From a virus: a stretch of 64,000 bases of DNA. The notes beneath the pieces were generated by a model. That model did not search any database and was not told the origin of the DNA. It saw only the letters and a list, made by a program, of their open reading frames with translations. Both the position numbers and the translations under genes were made by a program. Positions 8,663 through 25,182 of the stretch are shown here, piece by piece (position 1 is the first letter of the stretch; every line of letters begins with the position of its first letter). Location: positions 1-64,000 of the IMG/VR virus record IMGVR_UViG_3300047554_000685; one strand, 5' to 3'.

Positions 8663-9538
8663 TTAGGCTGTTAGATCGACTCGAACAGCGAGGTGGATTG
8701 ATGTATCAAAGTAAGCCGCAGCTGGGCGGATTGCTTTGAGACGCATGTCATTCGCATTACCCGACACGTCGTAAGCTTGGCTTAGATTGTCGTTCACGAC
8801 ATCAACATCGCCAACATAGGTTTTGACGGTGCCGGTGGCGTAAATCCATTTGTTGGTGGCTGATGCAGTAGCACCAGTAGCACCGTCTGGTCCAGTACCC
8901 GAGTAACCTGAACCAACAATAACCGGGGTTCCACCGAGGGTCTGAAGGTGTTCCTTGCCAGCCTCGTGGAAAAGCATATTTGAGTTGCTAGCAAGAAGAG
9001 CTGCAACATCGCGAGTCATGTGGATAATGCCTTGCTCACCGCCATCCGAAGCCAGACCAATTTCATGCTCTAGAAGAGCAAGTGCACGGCGTGGCGATAG
9101 AGCAGTACCGCCGTTAATAATAGTTGCAGAAGCAGAGGAGAGGGCTACGTTTGAGTGAGACTCTCCCTTACGAACCGCGCCGTCCCAAAGCTCGACTTCC
9201 ATGGCATGCTGAGTTACACCCTCAAGCTGGCGCTTTAGGCGCTCGATACGGTCAAGACCACTAAAACCTAGGGTAGAGCGAAGCTCTTCAGCCTCGATGA
9301 ACCAAGGCTTAATTTCTGTGTAATAAGTTGGAGTTCCGGCAGCTACTACTTCGCCATCCGTAGAGTCGGTGTCGTCCCAGTTAGTCGCTGAATAAAGAGT
9401 TGTTTCCCATTCCTGAGAAAATCCACGGACCCACTGGTCTTCGTTAGGACCATTTTCTGGCTTGACTACGGCGAGTAGGCCAAAAGCCGATGGCACAATC
9501 TTCGGTGCTGATACAACACCAGTCTTTGTGAAAGCCAT
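8663..9538 (-). CDS. minor capsid / capsid-associated structural protein
   Basis: Directly after MCP; 'GTPVIVGSGY', 'WIYATG' motifs seen in this head module. Confidence 0.6.
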   Translation of the reverse strand: MAFTKTGVVSAPKIVPSAFGLLAVVKPENGPNEDQWVRGFSQEWETTLYSATNWDDTDSTDGEVVAAGTPTYYTEIKPWFIEAEELRSTLGFSGLDRIERLKRQLEGVTQHAMEVELWDGAVRKGESHSNVALSSASATIINGGTALSPRRALALLEHEIGLASDGGEQGIIHMTRDVAALLASNSNMLFHEAGKEHLQTLGGTPVIVGSGYSGTGPDGATGATASATNKWIYATGTVKTYVGDVDVVNDNLSQAYDVSGNANDMRLKAIRPAAAYFDTSIHLAVRVDLTA

Positions 9539-9573
9539 TTAAAATCCTCTAAATAAAGTCTATATTTTTACTC

Positions 9574-9606
9574 GTATTGGGAGGGCCCCGAAGGACCCTC
9601 CCTCAA
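9574..9606 (-). terminator. intrinsic terminator-like hairpin after major capsid gene
   Basis: GGGAGGG...CCCTCCC inverted repeat. Confidence 0.55.
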
Positions 9607-9628
9607 CGATAACTGCGTTAGCGAACTA

Positions 9629-11638
9629 CTAGAGCTCGATGGTGGCTGCAGCGGTGCCACCAGTGGTGTCGCGCAGAGCTGCAGCAACACCGTTGATTGA
9701 GATGGTCGAGGTGATCTTAAGAGCCTCGATGCCGACCTTAGCAACATTCTCAAAGGTCTCAGTGAACATCTTGTAGTCGTTGGTGCCGACTAGAGAAGAG
9801 TCACGGATGATACCTAGGTCTAGGGTACCGCCGTCAAGGAACAAGAAGGTTCCCTCAGCGAATAGGTACCAAACGAAGCTGTCTGGGAACTCAAGGAGCG
9901 AAGTCGCGCCCTGTGAGCCGAAGACAGTTGCGTCTAGCGAAGCTACTAGGTCAACGTTAACGGTTGCTAGGTAGCCATCGATCTCAGACTTAGAAACGGC
10001 AAGAGTACCGTCACCAGGCATCGATAGAGTTAGGTCAGCTGCCATTGCCTCGTAGATCCATGAAGGAACAATTGCCTTCAAACGGGTCTGTGGGTCAATG
10101 CGGTGACGTGAGCGGTAAGCAACAGCTGCACGACGGATCTGAACTAGGAAGTCACGACCAAAACCGATTAGGTTAGTGGTAGTAACAGCAGTAGATGCGT
10201 CACCGATCTTGCTTAGCAAGTTCTGCTCTGCCTCGCGAGCGTGCTGTACAAGAGCTAGCTCGTTGTGGCGAGCAATCAACTCTGGGTAAGCACGAGTCAT
10301 GAGGTTACCAAACTGTAGCTGCAAAGTAACAGCGTCAGTAGAAACAGTGTTCTCTGAAGCAGCAACTACGGTGTAGCTAGTCTTGGTAGCAGACTGTGGG
10401 TCAGCATCAGTTGCAGCAGTCCATACACCAACAGCGTCAGCGTAGGTACCAGCAGCGAATGATGGTGGGGTTACAAAGCGGATACCGCCACGGTCAGCCT
10501 GGAAGCGAGGCAATGCATCGCGAACTGGGCGAACGGTGGTTGAACCGATTGAGTAAATGTCGTACTTAACCTCAAATGGCGCTGCGTGGCCACCAGAAGC
10601 AACAAGAGCTTCCTGACCTACAACGTTGTTGATCTTAAGTGCGTTTGACTCTGCATCGGTAGTCAAGGTACGCTCTTCTGGGTACTGAGTGGTGATAGAT
10701 GCAACGATGTGCTGCTCTCCATCGCCGCCGTTTACACGACGTAGCGAGTGGATACGCTTTTCCATAGCCTGAGCTACTTCCTGCATGTCGTTAATGGTGC
10801 TGCCTGCGGTGTAGCCAGGGATGTCTGCGCCAGCGGTGATTGCCACTGGAGCTGCCTCTGATACCTGAACTACAGGCTGACGGTCAGCTGGAGCCTCGAA
10901 AGGCTGTTCTGCTGCGGCGCTCACTAGTGCCTGCTCTTTCTGCTCTTCTACGAGAGCGGTTGATGTTTCTAAAGTGGTTTCTTCGGCTGATGCTTCTGAT
11001 CCCTCTACTGCTTCTGCAACTACTTCAGCCGAAGCTTCAATAGTCTCTACCTCTACCTCGGTAGCAGGAGCTTCATCAGCAACTACTTCCTCAGCAGAAC
11101 CGTCTGCAGTAATGGTCTCGTCCACAGTCTCAACCGATTCGGTCGATAGTTCAGAACCTGATTCCTGGTCAATTGATGCTTCAGCTACAGTCTCAGTAGA
11201 AGTCTCGGTCTCGGCTGATGCCTTCATGGCCTCATCCTCGTCTTCCTCTTCCTTCTCAGCTGGCTCTACTTCTTCAGCAGGGCTAACCTCTTCAACTGGT
11301 GCCTCTTCTACAGGAGCCTCTTCAACAGGGGCTTCCTCTACGATTGGCTCGTCTTCCATAGCCATTTCCTCTCCTTCTTCGGCTGCGCCCTTAACACGGG
11401 CGGTAGCCTCAGCCGCACGAGCAGCTAACTCTTCAGCGAGGGCCTCGCGACGAGAAAGCTCACCACGTACGATGTCAAGAGAGTCTGCAAGAGACGTCAT
11501 CGCATCAACTGACTCAGAAGTTGGTTCATCAGCATCGATCGACTCAAACTCGCCGACAATCTGAGTCTGAAGCTCAGCGAGTTGTTCATCGCTAAGATCA
11601 GCCAGAGTGTCTAGCTGTGTTTTAATCTGGTCGTACAC
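9629..11638 (-). CDS. major capsid protein with fused acidic N-terminal scaffold-like region
   Basis: C-term half 'RPVRDALPRFQADRGGIRF', 'EGTFLFLDGGTLDLGIIRDSSLVGTNDY' = actinophage MCP; N-term ~260 aa Glu-rich. Confidence 0.9.
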   Translation of the reverse strand: MYDQIKTQLDTLADLSDEQLAELQTQIVGEFESIDADEPTSESVDAMTSLADSLDIVRGELSRREALAEELAARAAEATARVKGAAEEGEEMAMEDEPIVEEAPVEEAPVEEAPVEEVSPAEEVEPAEKEEEDEDEAMKASAETETSTETVAEASIDQESGSELSTESVETVDETITADGSAEEVVADEAPATEVEVETIEASAEVVAEAVEGSEASAEETTLETSTALVEEQKEQALVSAAAEQPFEAPADRQPVVQVSEAAPVAITAGADIPGYTAGSTINDMQEVAQAMEKRIHSLRRVNGGDGEQHIVASITTQYPEERTLTTDAESNALKINNVVGQEALVASGGHAAPFEVKYDIYSIGSTTVRPVRDALPRFQADRGGIRFVTPPSFAAGTYADAVGVWTAATDADPQSATKTSYTVVAASENTVSTDAVTLQLQFGNLMTRAYPELIARHNELALVQHAREAEQNLLSKIGDASTAVTTTNLIGFGRDFLVQIRRAAVAYRSRHRIDPQTRLKAIVPSWIYEAMAADLTLSMPGDGTLAVSKSEIDGYLATVNVDLVASLDATVFGSQGATSLLEFPDSFVWYLFAEGTFLFLDGGTLDLGIIRDSSLVGTNDYKMFTETFENVAKVGIEALKITSTISINGVAAALRDTTGGTAAATIEL

Positions 11639-11763
11639 TGTACCTCCTAGGCCAGTATTGGTTTATGAATGGGAAGATCCCATTCATGGTGAACAGTCAA
11701 GGCTGAGGGACTCAGCACACGTTGTGCGAGGCGCTCCACCTATCACTAATTGTACCTTATTTT

Positions 11764-14700
11764 TTAGGTAAGGAGTCGAAGCAGGGTGTTCATCTCGGAC
11801 TGAATTTCAGCCTGAGAATATACATCTGCTCCAGACATGAAGGACTTCAGATTTGCAGTTGCAATGTCTGCGTCCTCTTTACCGATCTTTGCTTCGACTC
11901 GAGAAATCATCCCATCGATGAGTGTCTTTAGTCCGGCAGGTAGATCGCTAAATCTAACTTTCTGAGCTTCCTTGCCGAATGGCAGTGGAAGGTTGGCAAT
12001 GGTTTTGCCTAGTTCGGCCGCTGTTGTGCGTACGTTTTCTAGAGACTCTGGGTTTAGGGCCTTAGTATCTAGACGATCAATCATTCCCAGTAACTCGCTA
12101 CTAGCCTTAGCTGAATTCACGTAGTCGCCAGCAAACTCTAGGTTTTCAGCGGTCTCTACCTTCTCCAAAGCTTTCTGAAGCCCCGCTACGCCGAGGTTCT
12201 GCTTTAGTCTAGCAAGAACCTTGCGATACTTTCCTTTAGCGTCTCGGGGTTGAGTTTTTGGGGTGTACTTGCTACGACCTTCTTTGTCGTACACATCTTT
12301 GGCTGTGGTCTTGCCAGCTTTGATGTCTTCGGCAATTTTGATCTCTTCTTCAGTCTGCTTGTCGGCTTCTTCTTTAGCTTCCTTAAGCTTCTTCAAATCA
12401 GACTCAGAAATTTCTTTTGCATCAGTCTCGGCAAACTCGGCTAGACGAGAGCGCATTGAAGCAACTATGCTCGCGGCCTCAGACGACCCGGCTGATTTCC
12501 ATTCATCTGGAATTAGGTTAGCCTTACCAAGAGCCTTGGCTCGCTTAACAATGTGCTTACGAACGGTGACTCGCTTTTCACGCTTTGCACGTCCATATGC
12601 CTGAATCGCGTTACGGAGGTCCTGCTCGTTTCGGATCGGGTATGATCCATCTGGAAGAGCAAAGCCCTTGTCAGCAAGTTCAGATCTCTCTTCCTCGGAG
12701 AACTTAGCAAGTTCTGCAACAGCGGCAGCAACAAGAGCACGGGTCTTTAGTTCTTCCGCCTTAGCAGCGGTAGCAACTAGAGCCTGCTTCTTTACGGCTT
12801 TCTTTGCAGACTTGACGCGAGAGCGTAGGTCTGGGGCACTAGCTGAAAGCTCGGCTAGATTATATGCACGCTCAGATAGGGTTGCCACGTGCTGGCTCTT
12901 CATAATTGCCATCATGCTTGCGCCAGCTGCAACTAGAGCCATAACCTTACCTGAAGCAACCATTGCGCGAGCAACTGGGAAGCCTGGAACGTTTACCTGA
13001 CAAACTGCAACGAGCTCAAGAGAGCCATTGATTGGACGCCAGTCACCTGAAGGAGCAGATGCACGTAGAGCGCGAATCTGCATTTCGGTCGCGTCTGGAC
13101 GTACAGATCCAGCACACCAGATGCCATATTCATCTTCGCCCATGTGAACATCGGCAATTGCTGATGCAGTGTCGTCGTAGTGCTTAGCAGCAGAAGCGGC
13201 ATTAGCAGTTAGAGGTGCGTGTCCACCAGCAAGAGTCAGCTGACCAACCGGCATATCGCTACCATCATCGCAGCGGAGGACGCCGGTGTGGAAGTAGGCA
13301 TATTTGCTCTTTGAACGAGGTGGGCGGGTAGAGCGAGGCATACCAATGTGGTTTACATGCCAAGCTGCAATGTGCCCGTAAATGCGACCAGAAGGGTCAA
13401 CAGTGATCGGGGTAGCCTTAGTCAGCTTAGGGTCCTTGAACCACTCTGCTGGTGGTGTCATTGGAATCTCGCCGTCAAGGAATCCTGATGCAACTAGCGG
13501 TGCGCCAGAGAATTCTTGCTCGACGGATTCTTCGTATATTCCGTCAGCTGGAATCACTTCATCCTCCTGGTCTCCCGCTGGTTGTTCTTCAATAGAGATA
13601 GTGCATTCTTGGAATGCAGGCTTTGCTACAATTGTAGCAGCCATTACACGGGCGTGATTTATGGTTAACTTCTTCTTACCTACGTCTTCGGTGTCCTCGG
13701 CGTTTTCAGTCTTCTCTTCTTCCGCTTCGAACTGGTCTAGATCAGCAGAGACGCCACGGATAAATCCGTTACGTACTAGGCGCTCTGCCTCTTGACCATA
13801 TGCTCCTGTATCAAAAACACCATAGGCATTTCCAATACCGTTTTCGGTTCTTTCTACGTAATCAATACGTCCAACTACCACAGACCCCATGTGACCGTCG
13901 CCAGTCTTGATCTGCCATAGGAGTGGAAGTGGGAGCTCTCGAACTGATAAAGAGTCCTTCACGAACTTACGGCCATCGCCCGATTCTAGATCTTCTGGAA
14001 TCAGTAGAGGGATGTTGAATTTAGAACCGTGTTCCATTGCAGCACCTGCCACCAAACCAAAACGCTCTCTAGCGTGGTTTGCTCTGGCGGTAAGCTCCGC
14101 CTGAGCAATAACAGACTGAACTAGGTCGGTCTCGGTAGCGAACAAGCTAGAGGTTTCATTACGACGGCCCGGGTTTAGTCGGCTACCAGTATAGACACCA
14201 GTGGCATCCTTATGACGGAGCTGGCAGTAGCCCTTAGCACGATGCCCCATGTACTTTGAAAGCTGACGAACACAGCGAGTCCAGTCGCCTGGAGTACCCC
14301 ATCGAATCTTCGCAGCGCCCTTACCTCGAGTCCAGTACTGACGAAGCTCTTCTGCATTGCCACGGTTACGGTCTAGGCCACCAGCAGCAACAAACGCATC
14401 AAAAACGGTTAGCAAGCTAGCTGCAACAGCCTCGGGTGCAGTTTCTTCGCTAGGTTTTTCTTCAGCCATCTGAGACAAGACGTCATCTAGAGATTCTTTA
14501 TCTAGCTCCACTACTGGAGGCTTGGTAGATGAACGAAGATCGGCTAGGGTCTGATCATCTTGGACCCACTTGTCACCATCGCGCTTGTATGCAATTGGAG
14601 AAGTAGAGGTCGCAGTCTTAGGGATAATTGCAACTAGATCAACCATTGCCTCTGGGTCTTGCTGATCAACAATAGCAAGATACCTAGGGGTGACGTCGGA

Positions 14701-16263
14701 AGTAGAAGGAGTAAGGATCTTTTCATCCGCAGCGGCAATAATTGAAGCATCGGTGAATTTAGCGTTTGGCCAACGCTTCTTAACTGCAGCCTTATCAGCT
14801 GCGTTCCTTGGCTTGTAGCGTTCCTTCTCTACCCATGAAGCATAGTTGTTGATAAATGCATTTACATCTAGCTTAGGCAGTGTGCCCGGAATGTGGGCTT
14901 TCTTGCTGTTTTGAGGAGTACGAGGTTCCCCGATGATTCCTGAAAAGTCCATAGGAGTTTTACTAGCATCATCTACACGAAGAGAGTTTGGTCGGCTGTT
15001 AGCTTTATCAGCTGGTACTAGATACTTAGACCCAACCTTCACCGAGCGGCCGTCTTCAAGATCAACAGTAACGATGCCGGTCGCGCCGTCAATGTCTCGG
15101 ATTGTTCCAGAGCCTCTAGCAGCGTCTCCGCCGATAGCTACCTTCTGGCCTACCTTAGCAAACTGACCCATAGCGTCTCGAGGCTGGTTTCCAGCATTCT
15201 CTGAACGTTCCTCTGGAGTATAGACTCCATCTTGGTTAGAACCTGCAGCAGTAATAACTTGGTCAATGAATTCCCAGTCTTCGCCACTAATCCCGGCTTC
15301 CATCAAAGCGGCTTCATCGGCATCTAGATCAAAGACAGAAGTCTTACAGTACGGATCTACAGCCATACGAGCTGCAATCATAAGAGCAGACTGAGGGTCA
15401 ATAATTACGTGAGACTTTTCCTCGAGGTCGTAGACGTCATCGAGCATACGGTCATATGTCCATATGTCACCATCAACATGTCCTAGGTTGTCCCAGCAAC
15501 CGTCGTCCCAGACATAAACCGAACCATCAATGTCAATCATGTAGAGTCGGTCAATACCAGACCCGTCTAAGCAAACCCGAGCCAAGAACTCTGGGCCGTA
15601 GTTTGCGTCAAGCTCGTGAGCGTACTTGAATGGGTTTAGTTCTTCGTTCTGCTTAGGGTAGTTGATCTGATCAACGTAGTTAGAGACAGTGTATCCGCCA
15701 GCAGTAACTGACTTCTCTTTCTTGTCTTCGCGCTCAACAATGGCACGCGCCCAGCGCCAAGCAGCGTCTCCACCCCAGAGTGCCCATGCGATACGCCCGT
15801 TAGATGGAAAATTGTCTTGGCCAGGCTTCCAGCCCTTACCCTTTTTATCAACTTCGTGACGAGGGAAATACTTTGCAATATGGCGGATCTTGCGAATGCC
15901 AATTTGACCACCCTTAGCAAGGGTGCGGGCAGTATTCAAGCCAACAGGAGTTCCGCCTCGGCCTTCTTCTTTACGCCATTCCAAAGCTTTCTTTGCCTCG
16001 GCTTGGGCGGACTTAGGAATGGTATACATTCTATCGGCAGAGGCAACAATTGCATCTTCTTCTAGAGTGGCTAGAACCTTCTCGGCTAAAAGGGTTTCGG
16101 ACCTAGTTAAAGGAGTATCCGAGGTCTCCCATTTGTTTTCTGCAAAGAGGTCTAATGCCACACCGCTGGCAACGACGGCTCCTACGGCAGTGTCAATAAC
16201 TACACCGTGTGTATTGTTAGCATAGAATGCTAGTTCGCCAGAGCGGCCGATTAGGTGGTTCAT
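11764..16263 (-). CDS. large multidomain capsid maturation protease
   Basis: HK97-protease-like 'ESGDGR..LPLLWQ..GH..VVGRID..GVSADLD', second 'HYDDT..SGDWR' domain, 'ALPDGSYPI..AIQAYGRAK' (DUF6582-like); upstream of MCP. Confidence 0.75.
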   Translation of the reverse strand: MNHLIGRSGELAFYANNTHGVVIDTAVGAVVASGVALDLFAENKWETSDTPLTRSETLLAEKVLATLEEDAIVASADRMYTIPKSAQAEAKKALEWRKEEGRGGTPVGLNTARTLAKGGQIGIRKIRHIAKYFPRHEVDKKGKGWKPGQDNFPSNGRIAWALWGGDAAWRWARAIVEREDKKEKSVTAGGYTVSNYVDQINYPKQNEELNPFKYAHELDANYGPEFLARVCLDGSGIDRLYMIDIDGSVYVWDDGCWDNLGHVDGDIWTYDRMLDDVYDLEEKSHVIIDPQSALMIAARMAVDPYCKTSVFDLDADEAALMEAGISGEDWEFIDQVITAAGSNQDGVYTPEERSENAGNQPRDAMGQFAKVGQKVAIGGDAARGSGTIRDIDGATGIVTVDLEDGRSVKVGSKYLVPADKANSRPNSLRVDDASKTPMDFSGIIGEPRTPQNSKKAHIPGTLPKLDVNAFINNYASWVEKERYKPRNAADKAAVKKRWPNAKFTDASIIAAADEKILTPSTSDVTPRYLAIVDQQDPEAMVDLVAIIPKTATSTSPIAYKRDGDKWVQDDQTLADLRSSTKPPVVELDKESLDDVLSQMAEEKPSEETAPEAVAASLLTVFDAFVAAGGLDRNRGNAEELRQYWTRGKGAAKIRWGTPGDWTRCVRQLSKYMGHRAKGYCQLRHKDATGVYTGSRLNPGRRNETSSLFATETDLVQSVIAQAELTARANHARERFGLVAGAAMEHGSKFNIPLLIPEDLESGDGRKFVKDSLSVRELPLPLLWQIKTGDGHMGSVVVGRIDYVERTENGIGNAYGVFDTGAYGQEAERLVRNGFIRGVSADLDQFEAEEEKTENAEDTEDVGKKKLTINHARVMAATIVAKPAFQECTISIEEQPAGDQEDEVIPADGIYEESVEQEFSGAPLVASGFLDGEIPMTPPAEWFKDPKLTKATPITVDPSGRIYGHIAAWHVNHIGMPRSTRPPRSKSKYAYFHTGVLRCDDGSDMPVGQLTLAGGHAPLTANAASAAKHYDDTASAIADVHMGEDEYGIWCAGSVRPDATEMQIRALRASAPSGDWRPINGSLELVAVCQVNVPGFPVARAMVASGKVMALVAAGASMMAIMKSQHVATLSERAYNLAELSASAPDLRSRVKSAKKAVKKQALVATAAKAEELKTRALVAAAVAELAKFSEEERSELADKGFALPDGSYPIRNEQDLRNAIQAYGRAKREKRVTVRKHIVKRAKALGKANLIPDEWKSAGSSEAASIVASMRSRLAEFAETDAKEISESDLKKLKEAKEEADKQTEEEIKIAEDIKAGKTTAKDVYDKEGRSKYTPKTQPRDAKGKYRKVLARLKQNLGVAGLQKALEKVETAENLEFAGDYVNSAKASSELLGMIDRLDTKALNPESLENVRTTAAELGKTIANLPLPFGKEAQKVRFSDLPAGLKTLIDGMISRVEAKIGKEDADIATANLKSFMSGADVYSQAEIQSEMNTLLRLLT

Positions 16264-16324: not shown

Positions 16325-16492
16325 TTATTTATCGGGTGTGATATCTTTGATAACAACGCCATTCTCGTCTACAAATTCGCTGTCATCTTCATAATCTGGT
16401 ACTGGGTTTCCGATCACTTTTGCTAAAAGGGCCCAATACTCAGGATCATTTTCAGTATATCCGCCTAGCATGTCAGGCTTTTCTTTACTCAT
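16325..16492 (-). CDS. 55-aa acidic hypothetical protein (not in ORF track)
   Basis: MSKEKPDMLGGYTENDPEYW...ITPDK; ATG overlaps end of upstream ORF. Confidence 0.6.
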   Translation of the reverse strand: MSKEKPDMLGGYTENDPEYWALLAKVIGNPVPDYEDDSEFVDENGVVIKDITPDK

Positions 16493-18788
16493 CTGAGTCT
16501 CCATCTGATTTAGATTTGTTTGATGCTCGGTAACCCTCGATAGGGCTCCAGTCTCCCAGATCCATACCTAGCAAATAGTCTACTACCTTCTGAGCCTCGG
16601 AAGATGCTTTCATAACCATATCCGGGTTGTCTTGTAGTGCTTCTAGCCAGCTCTTTACATACGCTGCAGTGTTATCAAAGTCACTGTTAACACCAAACAT
16701 GCTAGCAAGGATTGCTGCAGAGATTTCTGCAATAAGTTCCTCTTCACCTCTAGCCGCATTATCAGTTCCGTAGTTCTTGGTTAGTTCGGTACGGTCAAGG
16801 CGATCCTTGTGTCCGGTGCTGTGGGCAAGCTCGTGAGTAATAGTGTCAAACATATCTTCTGGACTATTGAACTGCTCCTTGGTTGGGAGGGTAATGACGT
16901 CAGAAGCTGGGTTCCAGTTTGGAGAAGAAGAGTGGCTACCATACTCACCTACGTAGGTATAAGAAACTTCAGGGGCTTTCAAACCCTTAGCTTCCATAGA
17001 CTTGCGGTATCGCTCTAGGATGAAGTCCTGAGACTCTAAAGGAGTTTTAGGTTCGCCAGCTTCAGCCTTAACCGTAGGCAGGTTTAGGCCGTCAATCTGC
17101 TCAACGTTAAATACGGTCTTTACACCAAATGTTACGTAGCTACCAGTTACCTTTTCTTCTCCGGTTGAAGAGTCTTTCTCTTTCTTAACCCTCTTGTAAG
17201 GAACAAGGATTTGTACACCCTTCTCGCCCTTACGAACCTGCCCGCCTAGCTCGGTGGCTTGGTTGTAAGTCATCCAGCGTGGGTCGCTATATCCAGATAG
17301 TTGCTGATAGAGCTTAAGAACAATCGAGTTGATGCCGCTATAGATGTGTTTTGACGCTGGGTTGCGCGGAACGAATGCACCAGCATAGTTAGCATCATCC
17401 TTGAATGGTTTACGCCAAGGAGCCTTACCTTCTTTAATCTTTTCCAGTAAGCCAGACAGAACTCGCTCTTTAGCATCCTTGCTGTCAGATACTGATTTAG
17501 CACGGTTGAAAGGTTTTTTGCCTGGGGCTTGATTAAACCCTAGAAGGGGAGCATCAACTGAATCAGGGTTAGTGTCCGGGTTAAGGCTTGAGTCTTCTGG
17601 AGTAGTAGACGCCATTCTTGCTGACTGTAGGGTCGGAGCAACCTTAGTCTTTAGCGGGTTCCACTGAGGAAGGACGTCATTACCTAGTAGGTAGTCGGCA
17701 GCCAACTGAGCACGGGTCATGGCGTCAGTCACAGCCTTGTCCGCATCAATGCCATCTAGGTTTCTGATGTGAGTGAGCAGGTAGCTGATCGAGTTCTCTG
17801 GGTCAGCATCAAGACCAAACATCTTTGCTAGAAGCATGGAGCCTAACTCAGCGGTTAGCTCTTCTTCTGCGTAGGCATTACTATTTCCATCCAATGCCTT
17901 CTTAACTTCTTCTCGGTTAAGTCGGTTAGTTCTACCCGTGCTGTGGATTAGTTCGTGGGCAATAGCGTTGAACCAAGACTCGTCGCTATCAAAGTTTGCT
18001 CGGAGTGGTAGTCGTACTTTATCTACATCTCTACCGTAGCTTGGTTGCCAGCGAGGATTCTGATCTTTATCTAGTTGAATACCATAGAGCTCTGGTTGCT
18101 TGATACCGCGGATCTCGGCCGCCTCGCGCATTCTGTCGAGAACAATGTCTACAGCCTCTTTTGCGGTGTAAGACTTGTTTTCGTCAGCGTTGTATGGATC
18201 GATTCCTTGGATCTGGTCACCATTAAAAACAGTGACTTTTCTAAACTCAAAGTGCTCAACAACCTTGCCATCACGACTGGTGACAAAGAAACTAGGTACA
18301 AGAATCTGAGTACCCTTGGTTCCAGCCGAGATAGAGCCACCAGCCTGAGCAACCTGAGAAGCAGTCATCCAGCGAGGATCACTGAACCCATTTTCTGAGG
18401 CCGCGGCTTCTAGAGCAATCATGTTAGGGCCGGTGTAGTGGGTGTTGCTTGCAGGGTTGACTGGAAGAGGGCGATTAGCGTCCCTGCTCCACTTACGTAC
18501 CCATTCTTTTAGTTTTCTAGGGTTGCGTAGTTTTTCTAGGACATCGCTTAGAACGCTAGACGCTGCAGCCTTATTTGCCTCTGTTACAGAAGCCAACTTC
18601 TCATCTAGCTGTTCTTCAGTCAACTCGAGCGGATTAGTTCTAGACCCCGGCTCGCCTTCAGGCACTGAAGGGCGAACAGAGTTATCAGCCGCAGACTTGC
18701 GGTACTTATCTAGAATGCTCTTGATTCTGTCTAAATCTGGAGCGTCCTGATCTAATCCAGGCTCAGCCCCCTCGCTGGGGGCTAGGCT
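16485..18788 (-). CDS. tandem ArdC-like modules (ArdC-N/DUF1738 ssDNA-binding + zincin metallopeptidase) x2; probably the -1 frameshift extension of 18782..23983
   Basis: Two copies of 'NPAS...Y.G.N...DPRWMT..Q....GG....G.KG..ILVP...VFN..QI' + 'HEL.HSTG...RL.R...EE..AE'; frame open back to 18788; annotated GTG at 18665 lacks an RBS. Confidence 0.85.
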   Translation of the reverse strand, partial: SLAPSEGAEPGLDQDAPDLDRIKSILDKYRKSAADNSVRPSVPEGEPGSRTNPLELTEEQLDEKLASVTEANKAAASSVLSDVLEKLRNPRKLKEWVRKWSRDANRPLPVNPASNTHYTGPNMIALEAAASENGFSDPRWMTASQVAQAGGSISAGTKGTQILVPSFFVTSRDGKVVEHFEFRKVTVFNGDQIQGIDPYNADENKSYTAKEAVDIVLDRMREAAEIRGIKQPELYGIQLDKDQNPRWQPSYGRDVDKVRLPLRANFDSDESWFNAIAHELIHSTGRTNRLNREEVKKALDGNSNAYAEEELTAELGSMLLAKMFGLDADPENSISYLLTHIRNLDGIDADKAVTDAMTRAQLAADYLLGNDVLPQWNPLKTKVAPTLQSARMASTTPEDSSLNPDTNPDSVDAPLLGFNQAPGKKPFNRAKSVSDSKDAKERVLSGLLEKIKEGKAPWRKPFKDDANYAGAFVPRNPASKHIYSGINSIVLKLYQQLSGYSDPRWMTYNQATELGGQVRKGEKGVQILVPYKRVKKEKDSSTGEEKVTGSYVTFGVKTVFNVEQIDGLNLPTVKAEAGEPKTPLESQDFILERYRKSMEAKGLKAPEVSYTYVGEYGSHSSSPNWNPASDVITLPTKEQFNSPEDMFDTITHELAHSTGHKDRLDRTELTKNYGTDNAARGEEELIAEISAAILASMFGVNSDFDNTAAYVKSWLEALQDNPDMVMKASSEAQKVVDYLLGMDLGDWSPIEGYRASNKSKSDGDSDE

Positions 18789-18794
18789 TTTGGG
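18765..18794 (-). other. candidate programmed -1 ribosomal frameshift signal
   Basis: C CCA AAA heptamer (18794-18788) in correct phase, followed after 4 nt by stem-loop AGCCCCC-AGCGA-GGGGGCT with no U-tract. Confidence 0.75.
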
Positions 18795-21700
18795 TTTTTC
18801 TCGATTAGTGCTCGTAAACGATCAGCATAAGCATCTAGCTTGCGCGCTGCGTTCTCGCCAATACCACGGTTAGTTGAGCGTAACCAACTAACAGCTGATT
18901 CGATTGCCCTCAGAATGTCTTCAGGATTATTTCCTACCACATCAATAAGGCCAGCCATATCTCCTTCGGAGTCGTCGTTTAACAATCGAGCGTAGACATC
19001 ACCTAATGACTCGTTTTCTTTTGATAGGTTGGCGGCGGCCCATGCGGCGGCGTCCTCGCGATCATCAAACTCTTTACTGTAGCTGTCAGAATCGCTCTCG
19101 GGAGAATCTACATAACCTACCCATTTGCCAGTTTCTTCATCCTGACGAACTCCACCTTCCCAGCCGCCTCCGCGAACATCTCCGAGAGGGTACTCTTTGT
19201 CGTTCATATGGGCTTCAATGTCAGCAACGTCAGTAGGGTAGTAGTAGTCAAAGAAGTCTTTTAGATCTTCAAATGCCTTACCAAATTCAAAATCGCTACC
19301 CGCATCTTCTGGGTCGCGCTTAGCTGCTTCAATAGGTCCTAGATCGGACTCGATCTTGGCAAGCAAGTCATCAGCTGCCTTCTTAAGACGAGCTTCTAGG
19401 TCCTTACCTCCCTCTGAAGTAGGGCGCATTGAATTGTATGCATCCATTAGCTCGGAGTATAGGTAGTAAGCATCATCAATATCGTTCGGGTCAAGGCCCT
19501 CGACGAAGTCTTTGCCTAGGAATGCATAGCCTTTTTCATCGCTGTTCTCGGTTTCCTCGGCCAAAGAAACTAGCTCTGGTTTCATCTGCTCCCAAGAAGT
19601 TCCGTACTGCTTTCCGGCTGCTTGATCAAAACCCTTATCACCAGACTCTAACTTGGCAATTGCATCATCCATGTCGCTTGACCAGCGGCCATAACGCTCG
19701 TCGGCTCGTAGACGCTTTAGTGCATCTAGGTCACCCTTAGAAACTAGCGAGTCAATGTAGTTATTGATTCCGCCCTCAACGTCATCCATTTCTTTCAGCA
19801 TGCTGATGATAGATGAAACATCGCCCTTTGAGCGGTTCTCTAGGTCCTTGAGAATTTCATCGCGATCAGCGTCAGATAGGCCCTTAGCGTAGACGTCACG
19901 CTTTACAGAGTCAATCATCTTCTGAGAAGGCTTGCCGTACTGCCCCAAGTTTTCCTTGTCACCAAGGTCGCGGAGCTTACCGATGAATCCACCAGCCTGA
20001 GCCTTAGTCAGGTTGTTTCCTTCTAGAGCCTCTTTGATAGCCTGAGCAGTTTCTGAGTCAATACCTGACTTGGTCTCAGAGAGGTTCTTAAGGTAGTTGT
20101 ATTGGGCTTCGGTTGCTGGCTCCATCATCTTTGGAGATAGAGTTTTGCCTGGAGCTTGGTCGAAGCCGTCAATATCAACTCCAGCGTTTTCAAGCATGTC
20201 TGCAATCAGCTCTGGATCTTCGTTGGCATAGAAGTCAATAAAGTCTTCAGCGTAGTACTGAGGCTTCTGCATTACACGCTTGCCATCTGGGTGATCTACC
20301 GCTACGTCATAGACCATGTCATAGAACTCGTCTGGGTTCGTCCGACGCAATTTAAGGAGGTAGTCCCTCATTGACTCGGCTACGCTGTCTTTGGTGTCTT
20401 GATCTAGTTCGTCCCAAGCATCGGCGATACTTTTACCAGAAGCTTGATCAAATCCAGGCTCTTCTTCGCCCTTACGTGCGTTGATGTCTGCTAGGGCGTC
20501 CTCAATCTGAGACTGGTACTCGCTGTAGCTCGGATCATTTACGATGTCCTCGAGGAAGTCCGAGTCATCTCCGTCAATCGCAGCCTGAACTTCATCTGCC
20601 TTTGCCTGATCAGCGTCCGCAAGATTCTTCTGCTTACGCGAGTCTAGGGCCTCCGCGTTGGTGCGAATGTCTTCAACAATCTTGTCAAAAATTCCACCAG
20701 TAGTGTCGTTAGCAATGTCACGCTCGGCACCAAGTGCATCAGCAACATTAGACGAGTCACGTAGACGCTCGGCAATCTGGTTTGCCTCGTCCATCTTGTC
20801 AGAAACCTCTGCCTCAGATAGTCCGTCAGCTTCCAGTGAGTTTTGGTAGTCCTCTAGGGCTTGGTCAATTGCAGACTCTACATCAGCGTGAGCTGAGTCG
20901 TATTCGCTGTCAAACTCACTGTCAATTCCTGCAGCTTGGTCAAAGCCTTCGGTCTGCTGGCGGTCTGGACGACGACGTAGCTTAGCGGTGAGCTTCTCAA
21001 TTGAGTCACGATCTAGTCCTGCGTCAAGCTGAGCAAGAATGTCGTTCATCTCGTCAGGAGTCAATTCTTTGGTAGTTAGGTAACCCTGAAGCGAGTTGAT
21101 CTGACGCTCGGTTGGCTTGGTTGGATCAACACCAGGCTTAAAAGGCTTCTTAGTTAGGTCACCAAACAGAGAGGCCATCTGGGCCTTTGTTAGGTTCTTG
21201 TTAGCTAGAGCATCGTCAATAGCCTTTTGAGTGACAGGGTCAATACCGTCACGCTCTGAGTTAAGCTCCTCAAGAAGTGCATACTGCTTGTCAGTAGCTG
21301 GCTCCATCTGCTTTTCAGATAGTGGCTTAGCTGGTGCATCCGCCTTATCTTCGCCAGTCTTCTGGTCAAGACCAGCAGGTGGCTCGAGTTCATCTAGCTT
21401 CTTGTCTAGGTGCGCGTTGATGCCTTTACGAATATCAGAAGCAATGTCAGTTTCATCATAGGTCGGGCCAGCAGTGCCAGTAGCGACTTCATCGCCATCT
21501 TCGTTGTAGACGCCCCAGTTGCGGTAACCGTCTTCGTCTTCATCGCCAACCCAGATGCTATCATCGCTGTCGCCATTGAAGATCTTGTTTGCAAGCTCGT
21601 CTACCTTGTTAAGTAGACCTTCCTTATCAACAGCCATGCGAGCCTGCTCCTGAGCTGCATCGGCTTGCTCCTTCTCCCACTTAGCACGGGCACGCTTCTC

Positions 21701-23983
21701 TACCTGCTCTGGAGAATTGTAGAAGTCTTCCTGAGCCTTACGGTCAGCTTCACGCTTAGCCTTCTTCTCTTCTGCATAGTTAGGGTTCTCTAGACCGTTT
21801 TCTGCCATAGCAGCAACACGGTCAAGGAAGTCAGGCCAAGACTCGCGGTTATTACGAAGCACAGTCTCAACTGGCTTACCATCTACAGAGACCTGCATTT
21901 CGTCCCAAGCGACGTAGCCCTTTTCGTCATCGAACCACGAGCCGTCACGATACTTAACCTCTACGCGACCATCTGGAGATGTGTAGGTTTCCTCTCCTCC
22001 AGTGAAGTTGCCGTCTGCATCCTCTTCGAGGAAGAACTTGTGATCACCTAGGTCCTTGGCAATCTTTTTGCCAGCTGCGCTTAGCTTCGGAGCTTCACCC
22101 GGAGCCTGATCAAAACCACCGTCGTCCATACCAGCGCCGAAGTCATCATTGCGCCAAGCTTCGTAGAGGACATCATAAGCTTTGCTCGGGTCCTGTAGAA
22201 CTTCAGCAAACTCTTCAGCTGCCTTAAGAGCGTCTTCCTTAGAGTCGTAAGTTTGCTTGTCCTCGTAGTTATATTCTAGGTTTTCATCAACCAAACCTTG
22301 AGGAATAGACTTAGTTACTTCGTACTTGTTGCCCTTACGCTTTACCTCTACAAAGCCTTCGTCATTACCGTACTCAAAGTCGTCGCCCATGTTGTCAGAC
22401 TGCTTTAGACGGTTATCTGGGCTGAACCAGCTTTCCTGCTTCAAAAGCTTTTCTAGACCGTCGCCGGTGTCGCCATCTTCTAGATCTCGGTAGCTTGCAC
22501 GATACGATCCGATGTATTGACCATCATAGGTAACACTAATTCCAGAAAGGTCGGTGGCTCCAAAGCCGACGTCACCTTCGCCATCAGCTTCCCAGTTAAG
22601 TTCTAGCTTACCATCAGGAGAGGTATACTCGGCCGAGCCGCCCAAGTCTTTCCAGTTCTGAGGATTTGATAAATGATCCCAGTCAATCGCGCTGTCAAAC
22701 CAGTTTGAACCCTCTCCGGGCTTCTGATCTAGGCCAGGCTCTTCTGGAGTTTCGTCGCCCTCTCCATTAAGAGCATCGTAGGTCATACCAATCTTGTTGA
22801 GACCAGCCCAGTCCTGACCAACGCCAAGAATCTTGCCGTCTTTGTCGCGGATTTCAAACATCGGGGTATTTGGATCAATGGCACCGCTCTCGCCTGCGCC
22901 TTCGGTCATGTAGTCACCCTCTGGTAGGGTGTCAACAGCCTTTACAGTTTGACCAGTCTTAGATGTGAAGGAACCGTCTTCATTCTTGGTCCAACCCTCT
23001 GGAGCATCTACACGAGTCTTTAGGAAGTCTTCTAGAGGAATTGCAGAGGCAATATCTGCCTTGCTCGGGGTCGCAATAGTGCGGTTAGCCTTGAGACCCT
23101 TTACCTTAGAAAGTGCGCGCTTAGAGAGAATAGCCTTTACTGGAGCAGTCTTAGCGGCGTCAATAGTATAGATACCGTCAGGAATTTCGGGGCTGTCTTT
23201 AATCTCAATCTGGAAGTTGTTGGTTCCCTTAGGTGCACCAACAATGCGTGCATCTTCCGAAAAGATACTTCCGTCTCCGCGACTAAAGAATCCACGTAGA
23301 CGCCCAAATTCCTCAGCGAATCGGCCATCACGGTGACGACGACGAACCGCTGCCAAAATCTTTGACATTGCTGAACGCATTGCAAAGCTCATCTTAAAGG
23401 CTGCAGTGATAGGAAGTACTACGTCTTCTGGAACATAGCCAGCAGCAACCAATGCGCCAAGCTTTGCGCTGGCGTAGTCAGCCTCTACAGAACCAGGCTT
23501 GGTTGCGTAGGCCGCGTAAACATCAAGACGAGCCTGCTCCGAGGCAATGCGAGGGTCACTAGCTACCCAAAGGGCGGTGACTCGAGATAGGGCAGAGGCA
23601 GTCATAGCACCACGGTTAGTACGTGACGGGTGTCCTAGAGGAAGGAAGTCGGTGTATTCGCCAAGGCCAGAAGCGATAATACCGTGGTGAGAGTAGTTAA
23701 GGACGTTGTCTACAGCATTTGCTGCAAATAGCATCCACTCGCTTGGGTCAGCATCTAGATTGAAGTGGATTGCGGTTTCGATGATGTTATCAATCGAAGC
23801 GTCTGACACCTGACGGGCCGAAGCAACCAGTGCATTCTGAGTCTTCGCGTACTCTACGATCGCTAGTTTAGAGAGGTGCTCTGCATCCTCGGTTGTGTAG
23901 TCGCGATCAGCGTAGAAGTTTTCAATCTTGCTGATGAGATTAGTGAATGCTGAGCTCACTTTAGGCCTTCCTGAGCAGGGCAA
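18782..23983 (-). CDS. giant acidic modular head-module protein (putative internal/ejected polyprotein)
   Basis: 1733 aa between portal and protease; 7 copies of G[FL]DQ[AK]xG linker; two repeats of 'EPAT..Q...LTKAQ' domain; highly acidic segments. Confidence 0.7.
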   Translation of the reverse strand: MPCSGRPKVSSAFTNLISKIENFYADRDYTTEDAEHLSKLAIVEYAKTQNALVASARQVSDASIDNIIETAIHFNLDADPSEWMLFAANAVDNVLNYSHHGIIASGLGEYTDFLPLGHPSRTNRGAMTASALSRVTALWVASDPRIASEQARLDVYAAYATKPGSVEADYASAKLGALVAAGYVPEDVVLPITAAFKMSFAMRSAMSKILAAVRRRHRDGRFAEEFGRLRGFFSRGDGSIFSEDARIVGAPKGTNNFQIEIKDSPEIPDGIYTIDAAKTAPVKAILSKRALSKVKGLKANRTIATPSKADIASAIPLEDFLKTRVDAPEGWTKNEDGSFTSKTGQTVKAVDTLPEGDYMTEGAGESGAIDPNTPMFEIRDKDGKILGVGQDWAGLNKIGMTYDALNGEGDETPEEPGLDQKPGEGSNWFDSAIDWDHLSNPQNWKDLGGSAEYTSPDGKLELNWEADGEGDVGFGATDLSGISVTYDGQYIGSYRASYRDLEDGDTGDGLEKLLKQESWFSPDNRLKQSDNMGDDFEYGNDEGFVEVKRKGNKYEVTKSIPQGLVDENLEYNYEDKQTYDSKEDALKAAEEFAEVLQDPSKAYDVLYEAWRNDDFGAGMDDGGFDQAPGEAPKLSAAGKKIAKDLGDHKFFLEEDADGNFTGGEETYTSPDGRVEVKYRDGSWFDDEKGYVAWDEMQVSVDGKPVETVLRNNRESWPDFLDRVAAMAENGLENPNYAEEKKAKREADRKAQEDFYNSPEQVEKRARAKWEKEQADAAQEQARMAVDKEGLLNKVDELANKIFNGDSDDSIWVGDEDEDGYRNWGVYNEDGDEVATGTAGPTYDETDIASDIRKGINAHLDKKLDELEPPAGLDQKTGEDKADAPAKPLSEKQMEPATDKQYALLEELNSERDGIDPVTQKAIDDALANKNLTKAQMASLFGDLTKKPFKPGVDPTKPTERQINSLQGYLTTKELTPDEMNDILAQLDAGLDRDSIEKLTAKLRRRPDRQQTEGFDQAAGIDSEFDSEYDSAHADVESAIDQALEDYQNSLEADGLSEAEVSDKMDEANQIAERLRDSSNVADALGAERDIANDTTGGIFDKIVEDIRTNAEALDSRKQKNLADADQAKADEVQAAIDGDDSDFLEDIVNDPSYSEYQSQIEDALADINARKGEEEPGFDQASGKSIADAWDELDQDTKDSVAESMRDYLLKLRRTNPDEFYDMVYDVAVDHPDGKRVMQKPQYYAEDFIDFYANEDPELIADMLENAGVDIDGFDQAPGKTLSPKMMEPATEAQYNYLKNLSETKSGIDSETAQAIKEALEGNNLTKAQAGGFIGKLRDLGDKENLGQYGKPSQKMIDSVKRDVYAKGLSDADRDEILKDLENRSKGDVSSIISMLKEMDDVEGGINNYIDSLVSKGDLDALKRLRADERYGRWSSDMDDAIAKLESGDKGFDQAAGKQYGTSWEQMKPELVSLAEETENSDEKGYAFLGKDFVEGLDPNDIDDAYYLYSELMDAYNSMRPTSEGGKDLEARLKKAADDLLAKIESDLGPIEAAKRDPEDAGSDFEFGKAFEDLKDFFDYYYPTDVADIEAHMNDKEYPLGDVRGGGWEGGVRQDEETGKWVGYVDSPESDSDSYSKEFDDREDAAAWAAANLSKENESLGDVYARLLNDDSEGDMAGLIDVVGNNPEDILRAIESAVSWLRSTNRGIGENAARKLDAYADRLRALIEKNPKA

Positions 23984-24031: not shown

Positions 24032-24727
24032 TTATTTTCTAGTTGACTTCGGATGTGCTTTTGGAAGCAGGTCGTTGTCGGTTGTGTATTTTGAGTTTTT
24101 AGGTGAACCAGAGCGTAGTAAATGCAGATAAGCATTTACACGAGCCATGGCCCAAGAGTTGCGGTTTTGATCTGGTCGGTGGGATGTAGAGAATGCACCT
24201 GCACCACGACGGTACACAGCTTTAAGGGCTCCCATGGTAGCTTTTCTACCGTCTGGTGCTTTCTTGTTGTGTGTTTCCATTTTGTTTTTTAGGGCTGTCA
24301 CAATTTCTTCAGTAAAGTCTACAGACTTACCCGTGGCTGCTGACCCCTTTTTGTTTTTGCTTGAACCCTTGATTTGATCTTTCTTAGGTGCTGGCTTCGA
24401 ACCTGCGGTTGCAGTTACTGCACCGTCCGGGAGAACTGCAAAACGGCAAAGTCCTCCGTCCTCCACTTCAGCTGCAATAATTGAGCAACCATTAGGTGCG
24501 TTGAAGAAAACGCAGTTGCCGCATTTTACGCCGATCTTAGCGTTGTCTTCATTTTCTGAGGCAGGGGTGTATCCGGCCCAGACGCCAGTGTTGTCATCAT
24601 TAAATTTGCCATACTTATTCGCAATAAGTTGGAGTGCATCTGCAAGTTCTTGCTCTTCGGGGACTAGGTTATATCCACCAGCAACTACAGAATCGTCTTT
24701 TTTGAATACATCACCAACATAAGACAT
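24032..24727 (-). CDS. head-module protein with 4-Cys HiPIP-like motif and DUF5824-like C-terminal domain
   Basis: 'KCGNCVFF..NGCSII..GLCRF' and 'LKAVYRRGAGAFSTSHRP...WAMARVNAYL'; ATG 24727 overlaps the Dps stop. Confidence 0.6.
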   Translation of the reverse strand: MSYVGDVFKKDDSVVAGGYNLVPEEQELADALQLIANKYGKFNDDNTGVWAGYTPASENEDNAKIGVKCGNCVFFNAPNGCSIIAAEVEDGGLCRFAVLPDGAVTATAGSKPAPKKDQIKGSSKNKKGSAATGKSVDFTEEIVTALKNKMETHNKKAPDGRKATMGALKAVYRRGAGAFSTSHRPDQNRNSWAMARVNAYLHLLRSGSPKNSKYTTDNDLLPKAHPKSTRK

Positions 24728-25182
24728 TACTGAACCCCTAAAGTCGATTTCAATTGCCATTGCCACTTCTTGTGCATGTCAATGCGCCCGGCTAGGAAGT
24801 CAGCAATGCCTTGCTCATTGCATGCATCAGCAATGCCGAAAGCCTGCTCATAGCAAAGAAGCACTCCCTGATTAACGCGAGCCAAAGATTCAACCATAGA
24901 GACCGGATCTCCAAGCTCCCTCTCTTGACGAACAATACAAGTTAGTTCTACGAAGTCGGTGACTAGGTACGGGGCGTCATAGCCTAGCTTGCGGATGTTT
25001 TCAGCAAGAGGGTCAATGGCGCTATCAACATCAGAATAGATCTCTGCAAAAAAATCATGGAACTGATGAAAAGTAAGACCCTTCACATTCCAGTGATATC
25101 CCTGAGCTAGAAACCCAAAGGTAGTTACATCAGCTAATAGATGTGCTAGTTGCTCTGCTAGCCCGTCCTTCTCATGGGTCAT
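24727..25182 (-). CDS. dps: Dps / ferritin-like DNA protection protein
   Basis: 'HWNVKG..F..FH..F.EIY....IDPLAENIRKLG' Dps signature; 'HKKWQWQL' C-term. Confidence 0.92.
   Translation of the reverse strand: MTHEKDGLAEQLAHLLADVTTFGFLAQGYHWNVKGLTFHQFHDFFAEIYSDVDSAIDPLAENIRKLGYDAPYLVTDFVELTCIVRQERELGDPVSMVESLARVNQGVLLCYEQAFGIADACNEQGIADFLAGRIDMHKKWQWQLKSTLGVQ

Follow-up and report, generated by a model that had tools for sequence, protein, structure and literature searches.

A repeated linker motif, a predicted -1 frameshift and ArdC-type zincin modules in a giant polyvalent protein locus of a tailed phage

The window analyzed here, a stretch of 64,000 nucleotides (positions 1 to 64,000 of IMG/VR virus record IMGVR_UViG_3300047554_000685), comes from a 79-kb viral contig estimated to be 47% complete and carries on its minus strand a giant gene of the phage head module, open reading frame (ORF) 1, followed by an overlapping ORF2 in the -1 frame that encodes two ArdC modules. 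A short peptide motif, G[FL][DN]Q, recurs nine times along the two frames and divides their products into domain-sized cassettes. We describe this motif, the junction between the two frames and the zincins of ORF2, and we weigh the proposal that the motif is a cleavage site read by a protease that the phage itself encodes, most probably one of these zincins. The features on which the argument draws are as follows.

18782 to 23959, minus strand: ORF1, a giant head-module polyvalent protein of 1725 amino acids, from GTG at 23959 to the stop TAG at 18784-18782
22736 to 23959, minus strand: N-terminal anchor domain of ORF1, about 410 amino acids, conserved and common to 506 representative clusters
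22724 to 22735, minus strand: linker 1, GLDQ(KPG), in ORF1
22106 to 22117, minus strand: linker 2, GFDQ(APG), in ORF1
21362 to 21373, minus strand: linker 3, GLDQ(KTG), in ORF1, before copy 1 of the EPAT..Q cassette
20936 to 20947, minus strand: linker 4, GFDQ(AAG), in ORF1
20444 to 20455, minus strand: linker 5, GFDQ(ASG), in ORF1
20156 to 20167, minus strand: linker 6, GFDQ(APG), in ORF1, before copy 2 of the EPAT..Q cassette
19622 to 19633, minus strand: linker 7, GFDQ(AAG), in ORF1, before the last ORF1 cassette
18788 to 18794, minus strand: candidate slippery heptamer C_CCA_AAA, in frame with ORF1 and two codons 5' of its stop
18764 to 18784, minus strand: predicted hairpin with an 8-bp stem, a GCCCCC/GGGGGC core and a 5-nt loop, its GC core 5 nt past the heptamer
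16485 to 18790, minus strand: ORF2 as read past a -1 shift (bridge, linker 8, ArdC module 1, linker 9, ArdC module 2), stop at 16487-16485
18747 to 18758, minus strand: linker 8, GLDQ(DAP), in the transframe bridge, before ArdC module 1
17649 to 18581, minus strand: ArdC module 1 (ArdC-N and MPTase-PolyVal zincin), HELIH at 17957-17943
17529 to 17540, minus strand: linker 9, GFNQ(APG), between the two ArdC modules
16488 to 17531, minus strand: ArdC module 2 (ArdC-N at amino acids 448-561, MPTase at 635-741), HELAH at 16835-16821

The motif is far too frequent in these proteins to reflect their composition. G[FL][DN]Q occurs nine times in 2511 residues against an expectation of 0.096, 20,000 shuffles never yielded more than two copies, and the remaining ORFs of at least 100 amino acids in the window (21,886 residues) contain a single match. 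The full consensus reads acidic residue or proline, G, F or L, D or N, Q, then A, K or D, any residue, and G or P. The nine copies use different codons (GGC, GGT, GGA or GGG for the first residue, TTT, TTC, CTA, CTT or TTA for the second, GAT or GAC for aspartate, CAG or CAA for the glutamine), and the constraint therefore acts on the peptide and not on the DNA.

The placement of the motif is equally regular. ORF1 most likely starts at GTG 23959, directly preceded by the Shine-Dalgarno sequence GGAAGG, and our residue numbers count from an upstream TTG at 23983, running 8 higher than numbers counted from the GTG. In an AlphaFold2 model of ORF1 residues 400-1590, built on an alignment of 22 sequences (mean predicted local distance difference test score, pLDDT, 67; domains mostly 70-88), all seven ORF1 motifs fall in unstructured gaps of pLDDT below 50 between predicted domains and show no secondary structure; such gaps make up 20% of the model, and seven out of seven would arise by chance with p of about 1.5e-5. 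The motifs thus do not lie inside folded domains. A first-pass annotation of this DNA had proposed nine linkers that mark domain boundaries, two of them directly before the ArdC modules and two before a duplicated domain, and the locus bears this out: all nine are present on the minus strand, the seven in ORF1 separate predicted domains, those ending at 18758 and 17540 each precede one ArdC module, and those at 21373 and 20167 precede the EPAT..Q copies. The same annotation had a single giant protein cut into about ten pieces, of which the ten pieces stand as described but are spread over two ORFs that appear to be linked by a frameshift; it had also remarked that several pieces are extremely acidic, which agrees with the isoelectric points of the cassettes (4.05-4.9) and net charges reaching -36.

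The anchor and cassettes themselves are largely without recognizable relatives. The anchor, predicted as a helical bundle with small beta-barrels, has no confident match to a known fold (fold searches gave weak, generic matches, the best at Z 7.5), and it matched nothing in Pfam or PHROG even at E <= 1, Phage_Mu_F / SPP1 gp7 being among the families considered; an N-terminal Phage_Mu_F / SPP1 gp7 domain is what we take to characterize MuF-anchored polymorphic toxins. Neither anchor nor cassettes belong significantly to any Pfam or PHROG family, and searches of the anchor and the cassette region with Foldseek and VIA-align gave no convincing structural relative, and so speak neither for nor against the first-pass suggestion that acidic pieces could mimic DNA; the sole lead among the cassettes is a weak likeness of the duplicated EPAT..Q cassette, which follows linkers 3 and 6, to DUF3072 (E 9e-4, below the Pfam cut-off). 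The anchor nevertheless defines a family of giant phage proteins of 506 representative clusters, the largest member 7004 amino acids long. None of the cultured phages carries the anchor, and a partial match was found solely in the metagenome-assembled Actinomycetia phage DSL-LC01, whose homologue of 3289 amino acids has no recurrent linker. Recognizable cargo elsewhere in the anchor family includes DnaG primase, UvrD helicase, RNase T, GNAT, Zeta toxin, ParB and ADP-ribosyltransferase domains. Two neighboring giants exemplify the variety of effectors on this chassis: a 4896-amino-acid homologue with EEDLP linkers and several GNAT acetyltransferase cassettes (L046, 1197-15884), and the giant next to it, which has a Zeta-toxin kinase domain. 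Separately, one ORF1 homologue (L009, 9406-13854) is broken by a single in-frame stop into 9406-12111 and 12115-13854, for which read-through, a pseudogene or a sequencing error are all possible.

Comparison among homologues shows that the linker is conserved while the cargo varies, as the first-pass annotation had anticipated. Twenty-three homologues (P0002-P0024) share a common N-terminal domain of 405 amino acids and contain 6-10 motifs each. When 33 homologues were split at their own motifs and the pieces clustered, about 26 cassette families resulted. The 23 homologues with GFDQ or GLDQD motifs all retain the anchor and the last two cassettes, the last ORF1 cassette (after linker 7) being kept in 23 of the 33 clustered homologues, that is, in all GFDQ and GLDQD lineages; the middle cassettes are present or absent, duplicated or relocated, and the breakpoints always fall at the motif. 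Three lineages, with 61, 84 and 29 distinct sites, show no variation at G or Q. The linker peptide, which we call a code, is uniform within a protein and differs between lineages, as listed here by the proteins (P) or loci (L) that carry it.

Window lineage: G[FL]DQ[AK]xG
Nearest sister lineage: PG[LF]DQDAP
P0025-P0033 and L043: E[EQ]GLGQxxP
P0034, L016 and relatives: [PV]DLDQD
P0060-P0065, P0162 and P0163: GFAQ
P0170: GFxQGER
L020 and L029: [IL]D[KR]MA[PA]K
L048 and L052: [VI]EE[SM][SA]
P0190: QEMAT
L046 and P0212 (with a related form in P0216): EEDL[PG]
P0221: GPSPKEE
P0286: IMDPP

The uniformity also reaches across ORFs. ORF2 of the GLGQ lineage likewise has GLGQ as its internal linker, and the last ORF1 copy there adjoins the slippery site; in the window lineage there is no motif past the last ORF1 cassette and one at the frameshift junction; and the code of the first giant also runs through a second one downstream in the IDKM and VEES lineages. 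Relatives that lack a code show no over-represented 4-mer, and a scan of viral contigs with the single protein P0033 found no locus. Since the peptide is uniform in each protein, specific to each lineage and free to vary in its codons, one trans-acting reader per phage is indicated; we accordingly interpret the motif, from sequence comparison, as the recognition site of such a reader, which is most likely a protease.

The junction between ORF1 and ORF2 suggests how a protease could be attached to this chain. The ArdC ORF lies in the -1 frame relative to ORF1 and is open from 18821, and its first ATG, GTG or TTG, at 18665, comes 52 codons into the open frame. ORF1 ends in AAC CCA AAA GCC TAG and thus presents the heptamer in frame; the local fold that includes the hairpin has a minimum free energy of -27.7 kcal/mol (z -3.2). 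After a -1 slip the reading would continue P-K-S-L-A-P-S-E-G-A-E-P-G-L-D-Q, so that linker 8, reached solely past the slip, would exist in the transframe product only. The layout of heptamer and hairpin is kept in nine contigs, the window and eight others, from three linker lineages: C_CCA_AAA is identical in eight of them and replaced by A_AAA_AAA/G in one, five C-G pairs of the stem occur in all nine, and the loop varies. A lineage of 35% identity has the other heptamer (A_AAA_AAA/G) with the same CCCCC/GGGGG stem. The C-terminal PKA of ORF1 is found in 32 of 36 homologues, and the bridge peptide is conserved 5' of any start codon; an indel spoiled the count of synonymous and non-synonymous changes in the bridge, and conservation is judged here from the peptide alone. 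Moreover, ORF1 and ArdC are fused in frame in the homologues P0165 (3915 amino acids), P0159 and P0170, and a linker stands at the ORF1/ORF2 junction in every case. With an in-frame heptamer, a downstream structure, an ORF2 conserved 5' of any start codon and fused homologues, ORF1 and ORF2 are, on sequence criteria, probably joined by a programmed -1 frameshift. One observation weighs against this: the invariant stem offers no covariation and doubles as coding sequence for a conserved P-x-E-G, so that the structural part of the argument draws only on position and conservation. In the DLDQ lineage (L016, 14392-14472), whose proteins end in FSKK[AD], the corresponding site is an A-run, A_AAA_AAA/G, with a CCCCC/GGGGG hairpin, and its 7-8 A residues make transcriptional slippage an alternative route there.

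The identity of the ORF2 modules is clear from profile searches. The modules span amino acids 78-391 and 431-778 of the ORF2 frame, where PF08401, the single-stranded DNA (ssDNA)-binding domain of ArdC, matches in two stretches (E 9.5e-50, 168 bits against a cut-off of 22.6) and PF18818, the MPTase-PolyVal zincin, also matches in two (E 4.7e-48); the HExxH motif and the Glu helix are invariant in all 11 ArdC modules compared. In its fold the module is similar to Spartan, which is activated by DNA. With these two ArdC-N/MPTase modules and seven other cassettes, ORF1 and ORF2 together have the domain composition of a polyvalent protein.

Across the family, zincins and linker codes tend to occur together. 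All loci in which ArdC was found have coded giants; the Phi-x-Q lineages reach it through the frameshift, the IDKM, GFxQGER and GPSPKEE proteins contain it in frame, and linkers flank the ArdC modules as well. Where a coded lineage lacks ArdC, other HExxH domains occur, among them a HEYGH...AEKFAE zincin family in the second giants and a HExGHxxExAxPE zincin family that accompanies the EEDL codes. The six code-less loci with a complete interval as far down as ORF3 (L015, L017, L022, L023, L027 and L036) have no HExxH, and among representatives without a frameshift-type tail the association of HExxH with a strong code gives a Fisher p of 0.003, uncorrected for phylogeny. The second giants are polyvalent proteins located between the first giant and ORF3 (L049, 16503-26879, with L062; L048, 14325-23747; L052, 16036-25473; and L056/L058); they have the linker code of the first giant and the HEYGH...AEKFAE zincin, which Pfam does not recognize.

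Several observations count against a zincin as the reader of the code. In the tree of the anchor domain one clade holds the Phi-x-Q lineages and another the IDKM lineage, so that the association of code and ArdC amounts to about two independent origins and is statistically weak. ArdC-bearing relatives without a recurrent code exist (P0195, L056/L058 and P0093-P0112), and two coded representatives, P0190 and P0286, have no in-frame HExxH. No such linkers were seen in the plasmid- or ICE-type (integrative and conjugative element) ArdC-primase or ArdC-helicase fusions that we examined. Finally, ArdC of plasmid R388 showed no proteolysis in vitro, and its protease is dispensable for function (PMC7213743).

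Weighing these points, we infer a scheme that extends from cleavage and the enzyme responsible to the bond cut, packaging and ejection. ORF1 and ORF2 would encode a virion-associated polyvalent polyprotein, beginning with the 410-amino-acid anchor and continuing with seven acidic cassettes. Most ribosomes would stop at 18782 and yield the anchor with the seven cassettes, a product of about 190 kDa, and a minority would slip by -1 at C_CCA_AAA and append the bridge and the two ArdC modules, each an ssDNA-binding domain with a zincin, for a total of about 275 kDa. Frameshifting would thereby set a low ratio of protease to substrate, as in retroviral Gag-Pol. Both forms may enter proheads through their common anchor, as the position of the genes suggests, and the ArdC-type zincin of the polyprotein itself would cut the linkers, in cis or in trans. 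This could take place in the filled head or once the protein has been ejected, and would free about ten separate effectors, including the two ArdC modules with their putative anti-restriction role. A zincin with a hydrophobic S1' pocket would be expected to cut G|F/L, and cleavage after the invariant Q as P1 (Q|x) is equally possible.

That the linker motif is a protease site of some kind seems to us fairly likely. To the specific proposal, with an ArdC-type zincin of the polyprotein itself as the cutting enzyme and frameshifting as the means of dosing it, we assign a probability of roughly 0.45. A more ambitious generalization, which we regard as doubtful, would make this a Gag-Pol-like double-stranded DNA (dsDNA) phage in which a frameshift-dosed zincin matures a head-packaged polyprotein at a code that co-diversifies with the protease, the whole serving as a chassis for effector delivery; the three zincin-code pairings in that case would be ArdC-MPTase with Phi-x-Q, HEYGH with Phi-[DE]-[KRE]-[MS]-[AS], and HExGHxxExAxPE with EEDL[PG].

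The motif might instead not be cut at all and serve as a repeated docking motif, tethering the protein to an inner-capsid, portal or DNA partner, or as a modification site. The sites are disordered, repeated and conserved as peptides, as docking motifs typically are. Encapsulin cargo and T4 cargo use short targeting peptides. Against this, the capsid and portal proteins are conserved although the codes diverge completely, and the motif stands strictly between units, with none past the last ORF1 cassette of the window lineage and one at the frameshift junction; this placement suits a separator better than a tag on each cassette, and we consider docking or modification improbable.

A second alternative keeps cleavage and changes the enzyme. 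The first-pass annotation had named the head protease or the HExxH peptidases of the ArdC modules as candidates; association favors the latter, and comparison of the head genes disfavors the former. The relevant genes of the head module are these.

29004 to 27601, minus strand: large terminase
26939 to 25179, minus strand: portal, followed by two small genes
11764 to 16263, minus strand: ORF3, a fusion of head maturation protease and scaffold of 1499 amino acids, without linker code
9629 to 11638, minus strand: major capsid protein, with a long, acidic, scaffold-like N-terminal region and no conserved linker code

Here the linkers would be cut by the ORF3 prohead maturation protease, in the manner of T4 internal proteins or of the ejection proteins of phiKZ and SPN3US. 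The order of the head module on the minus strand (terminase, portal, two small genes, ORF1, ORF2, ORF3, capsid and tail genes) suits this idea, ORF1 and ORF2 lying between the portal and the protease and capsid genes; head proteases are known to process packaged proteins (PMC5694885, PMC10052503); and all lineages have a head protease, even the coded ones that lack ArdC. The code, however, is absent from the capsid, ORF3 and portal proteins of the window and from those of three other code lineages. ORF3 is 46-57% identical and the capsid 62-76% in comparisons of lineages with unrelated codes (GFDQ, IDKMAP and EEDLP), and neither carries any of the codes; the probable maturation region of the capsid is alike in coded and code-less phages, and the same protease occurs in code-less relatives. 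Because protease and substrates are conserved across unrelated codes, it is improbable that the head protease recognizes GFDQ in some phages and IDKMAP or EEDLP in others, and we rate this alternative a little below docking.

Two look-alikes in these genes were considered and rejected. The capsid peptide SIDQESG, a candidate for a common head-protease site, is not conserved, being missing in L007 and L009, and GVSADLDQFEA in ORF3, a candidate linker, is conserved everywhere and reads, by its motif, as the catalytic-serine strand of an S78 fold. The ORF3 protease domain appears S78/HK97-like from its motifs, with no Pfam match. ORF3 consists of an N-terminal 700 amino acids of unknown nature, the S78-like protease region, a second region resembling a head maturation protease (PHROG 18402, amino acids 940-1164) and a coiled-coil, scaffold-like tail. 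Its equivalent in DSL-LC01 is three separate genes annotated as capsid maturation protease, and in L003 two overlapping ORFs (17967-20081 and 19993-22914). The N-terminal extension of the capsid protein, about 260 amino acids, comprises a helical, scaffold-like segment that is conserved and then a variable spacer, very acidic and with PVEEA-type repeats; past the spacer lies a strongly conserved region, 'PADRQP...VAITAGADIPGY', which probably holds the maturation site.

We think it slightly less probable again that a host protease acts on the linkers after ejection, or that an unrecognized phage protease does so. The codes do differ among lineages with possibly different hosts, and most cassettes have no known family. 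Either enzyme would leave the association with phage-borne zincins unexplained, and co-evolution with a linked gene is the easier explanation for the GFDQ, GLGQ and GFAQ codes, which belong to close lineages and differ at one position. Least probable by far is that the motif has no peptide function and was left behind when cassettes were duplicated or recombined at a joint in the DNA: cassettes are indeed shuffled at the motif and some are paralogous (A142/A178), but synonymous variation among the nine copies, which encode the same residues with different codons, largely refutes this, and the non-homologous cassettes that the motif flanks and the invariance of G and Q over at least 170 distinct sites also speak against it.

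The capsid protein of the window is 69% identical to that of DSL-LC01, assembled from lake water, and about 50% identical to the capsids of large Microbacterium, Arthrobacter and Gordonia phages; in view of these relatives the host is probably a freshwater actinobacterium. The product of the gene directly 5' of ORF1 (24032-24766, minus strand) is small and Cys-rich and has a CGNC motif and, at the C terminus, a conserved '...LLPK..' tail; the position of this gene is kept in distant relatives of the family (the 5' ORFs of L049, L052 and L056).

Polyvalent proteins are widespread in phages and conjugative elements, and their cutting into working parts has been predicted and never shown. Autoprocessing by the MPTase was predicted with no site defined (Iyer, Burroughs, Anand, de Souza, and Aravind, 2017, PMC5512222), in a paper in which the words 'linker' and 'frameshift' do not occur, and no substrate is known for the ArdC protease (PMC7213743). 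The locus described here, together with about 500 related clusters, offers explicit candidate cleavage peptides, natural specificity variants with D, G or A at one position as well as unrelated codes, and a conserved frameshift signal that would set the ratio of enzyme to substrate. If our proposal is correct, the motif would be the first substrate motif for ArdC-type peptidases, the locus would show how tailed phages package and release many anti-defense effectors from one gene, and the arrangement of anchor, linkers and cassettes would provide a modular scaffold for studying phage protein delivery. Our literature search returned no paper on GFDQ or GLDQ as a linker code and none on ArdC with frameshifting; polyvalent proteins and viral polyproteins are known, and the combination of a lineage-specific linker code with a frameshift-appended zincin in a tailed phage was not found in the searchable literature.

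A close functional parallel is retroviral Gag-Pol, in which a -1 frameshift doses the protease that cuts a structural polyprotein at defined sites. The locus resembles it in having an X_XXY_YYZ heptamer with a downstream structure at the end of the upstream ORF, a protease in the transframe product only and repeated candidate cleavage sites between domains, and differs in belonging to a dsDNA tailed phage, in using a zincin in place of an aspartic protease, in carrying anti-defense effectors in place of capsid or replicase, and in that cleavage here is a prediction. Among phage head proteases, T4 gp21 cuts at LxE. Those of phiKZ (gp175) and SPN3US (gp245) cut at AxE (PMC5694885, PMC10052503). 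These systems share with ours short consensus sites in packaged and ejected proteins, if ORF1 and ORF2 are packaged as we suppose; in them, however, the motif also occurs in capsid and scaffold and usually releases one propeptide per protein, whereas here the code is missing from capsid and scaffold, and one chain is partitioned by the sites into about ten units. ArdC of plasmid R388 has the same two-domain module with the HExxH and Glu-helix gluzincin signature but stands alone, whereas the modules here are duplicated, placed behind linkers and reached by an apparent frameshift. The P1 Dar proteins, of which DdrB is processed before packaging, and the N4 virion RNA polymerase are likewise large head-packaged proteins, some with an MPTase (PMC5512222), and have anti-restriction or early functions; they lack repeated linker sites and cassette punctuation, and we found no sequence relationship to them. 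The phage-type polyvalent proteins (PMC5512222) are close in composition, being giant multi-domain proteins of the late or virion gene block with ArdC-N and MPTase domains and with relatives that contain ParB, ADP-ribosyltransferase, DnaG, UvrD, RNase T, GNAT and Zeta-toxin cassettes. To that description the present locus adds a lineage-specific punctuation code, a common N-terminal anchor and a zincin that appears to be appended by frameshifting.

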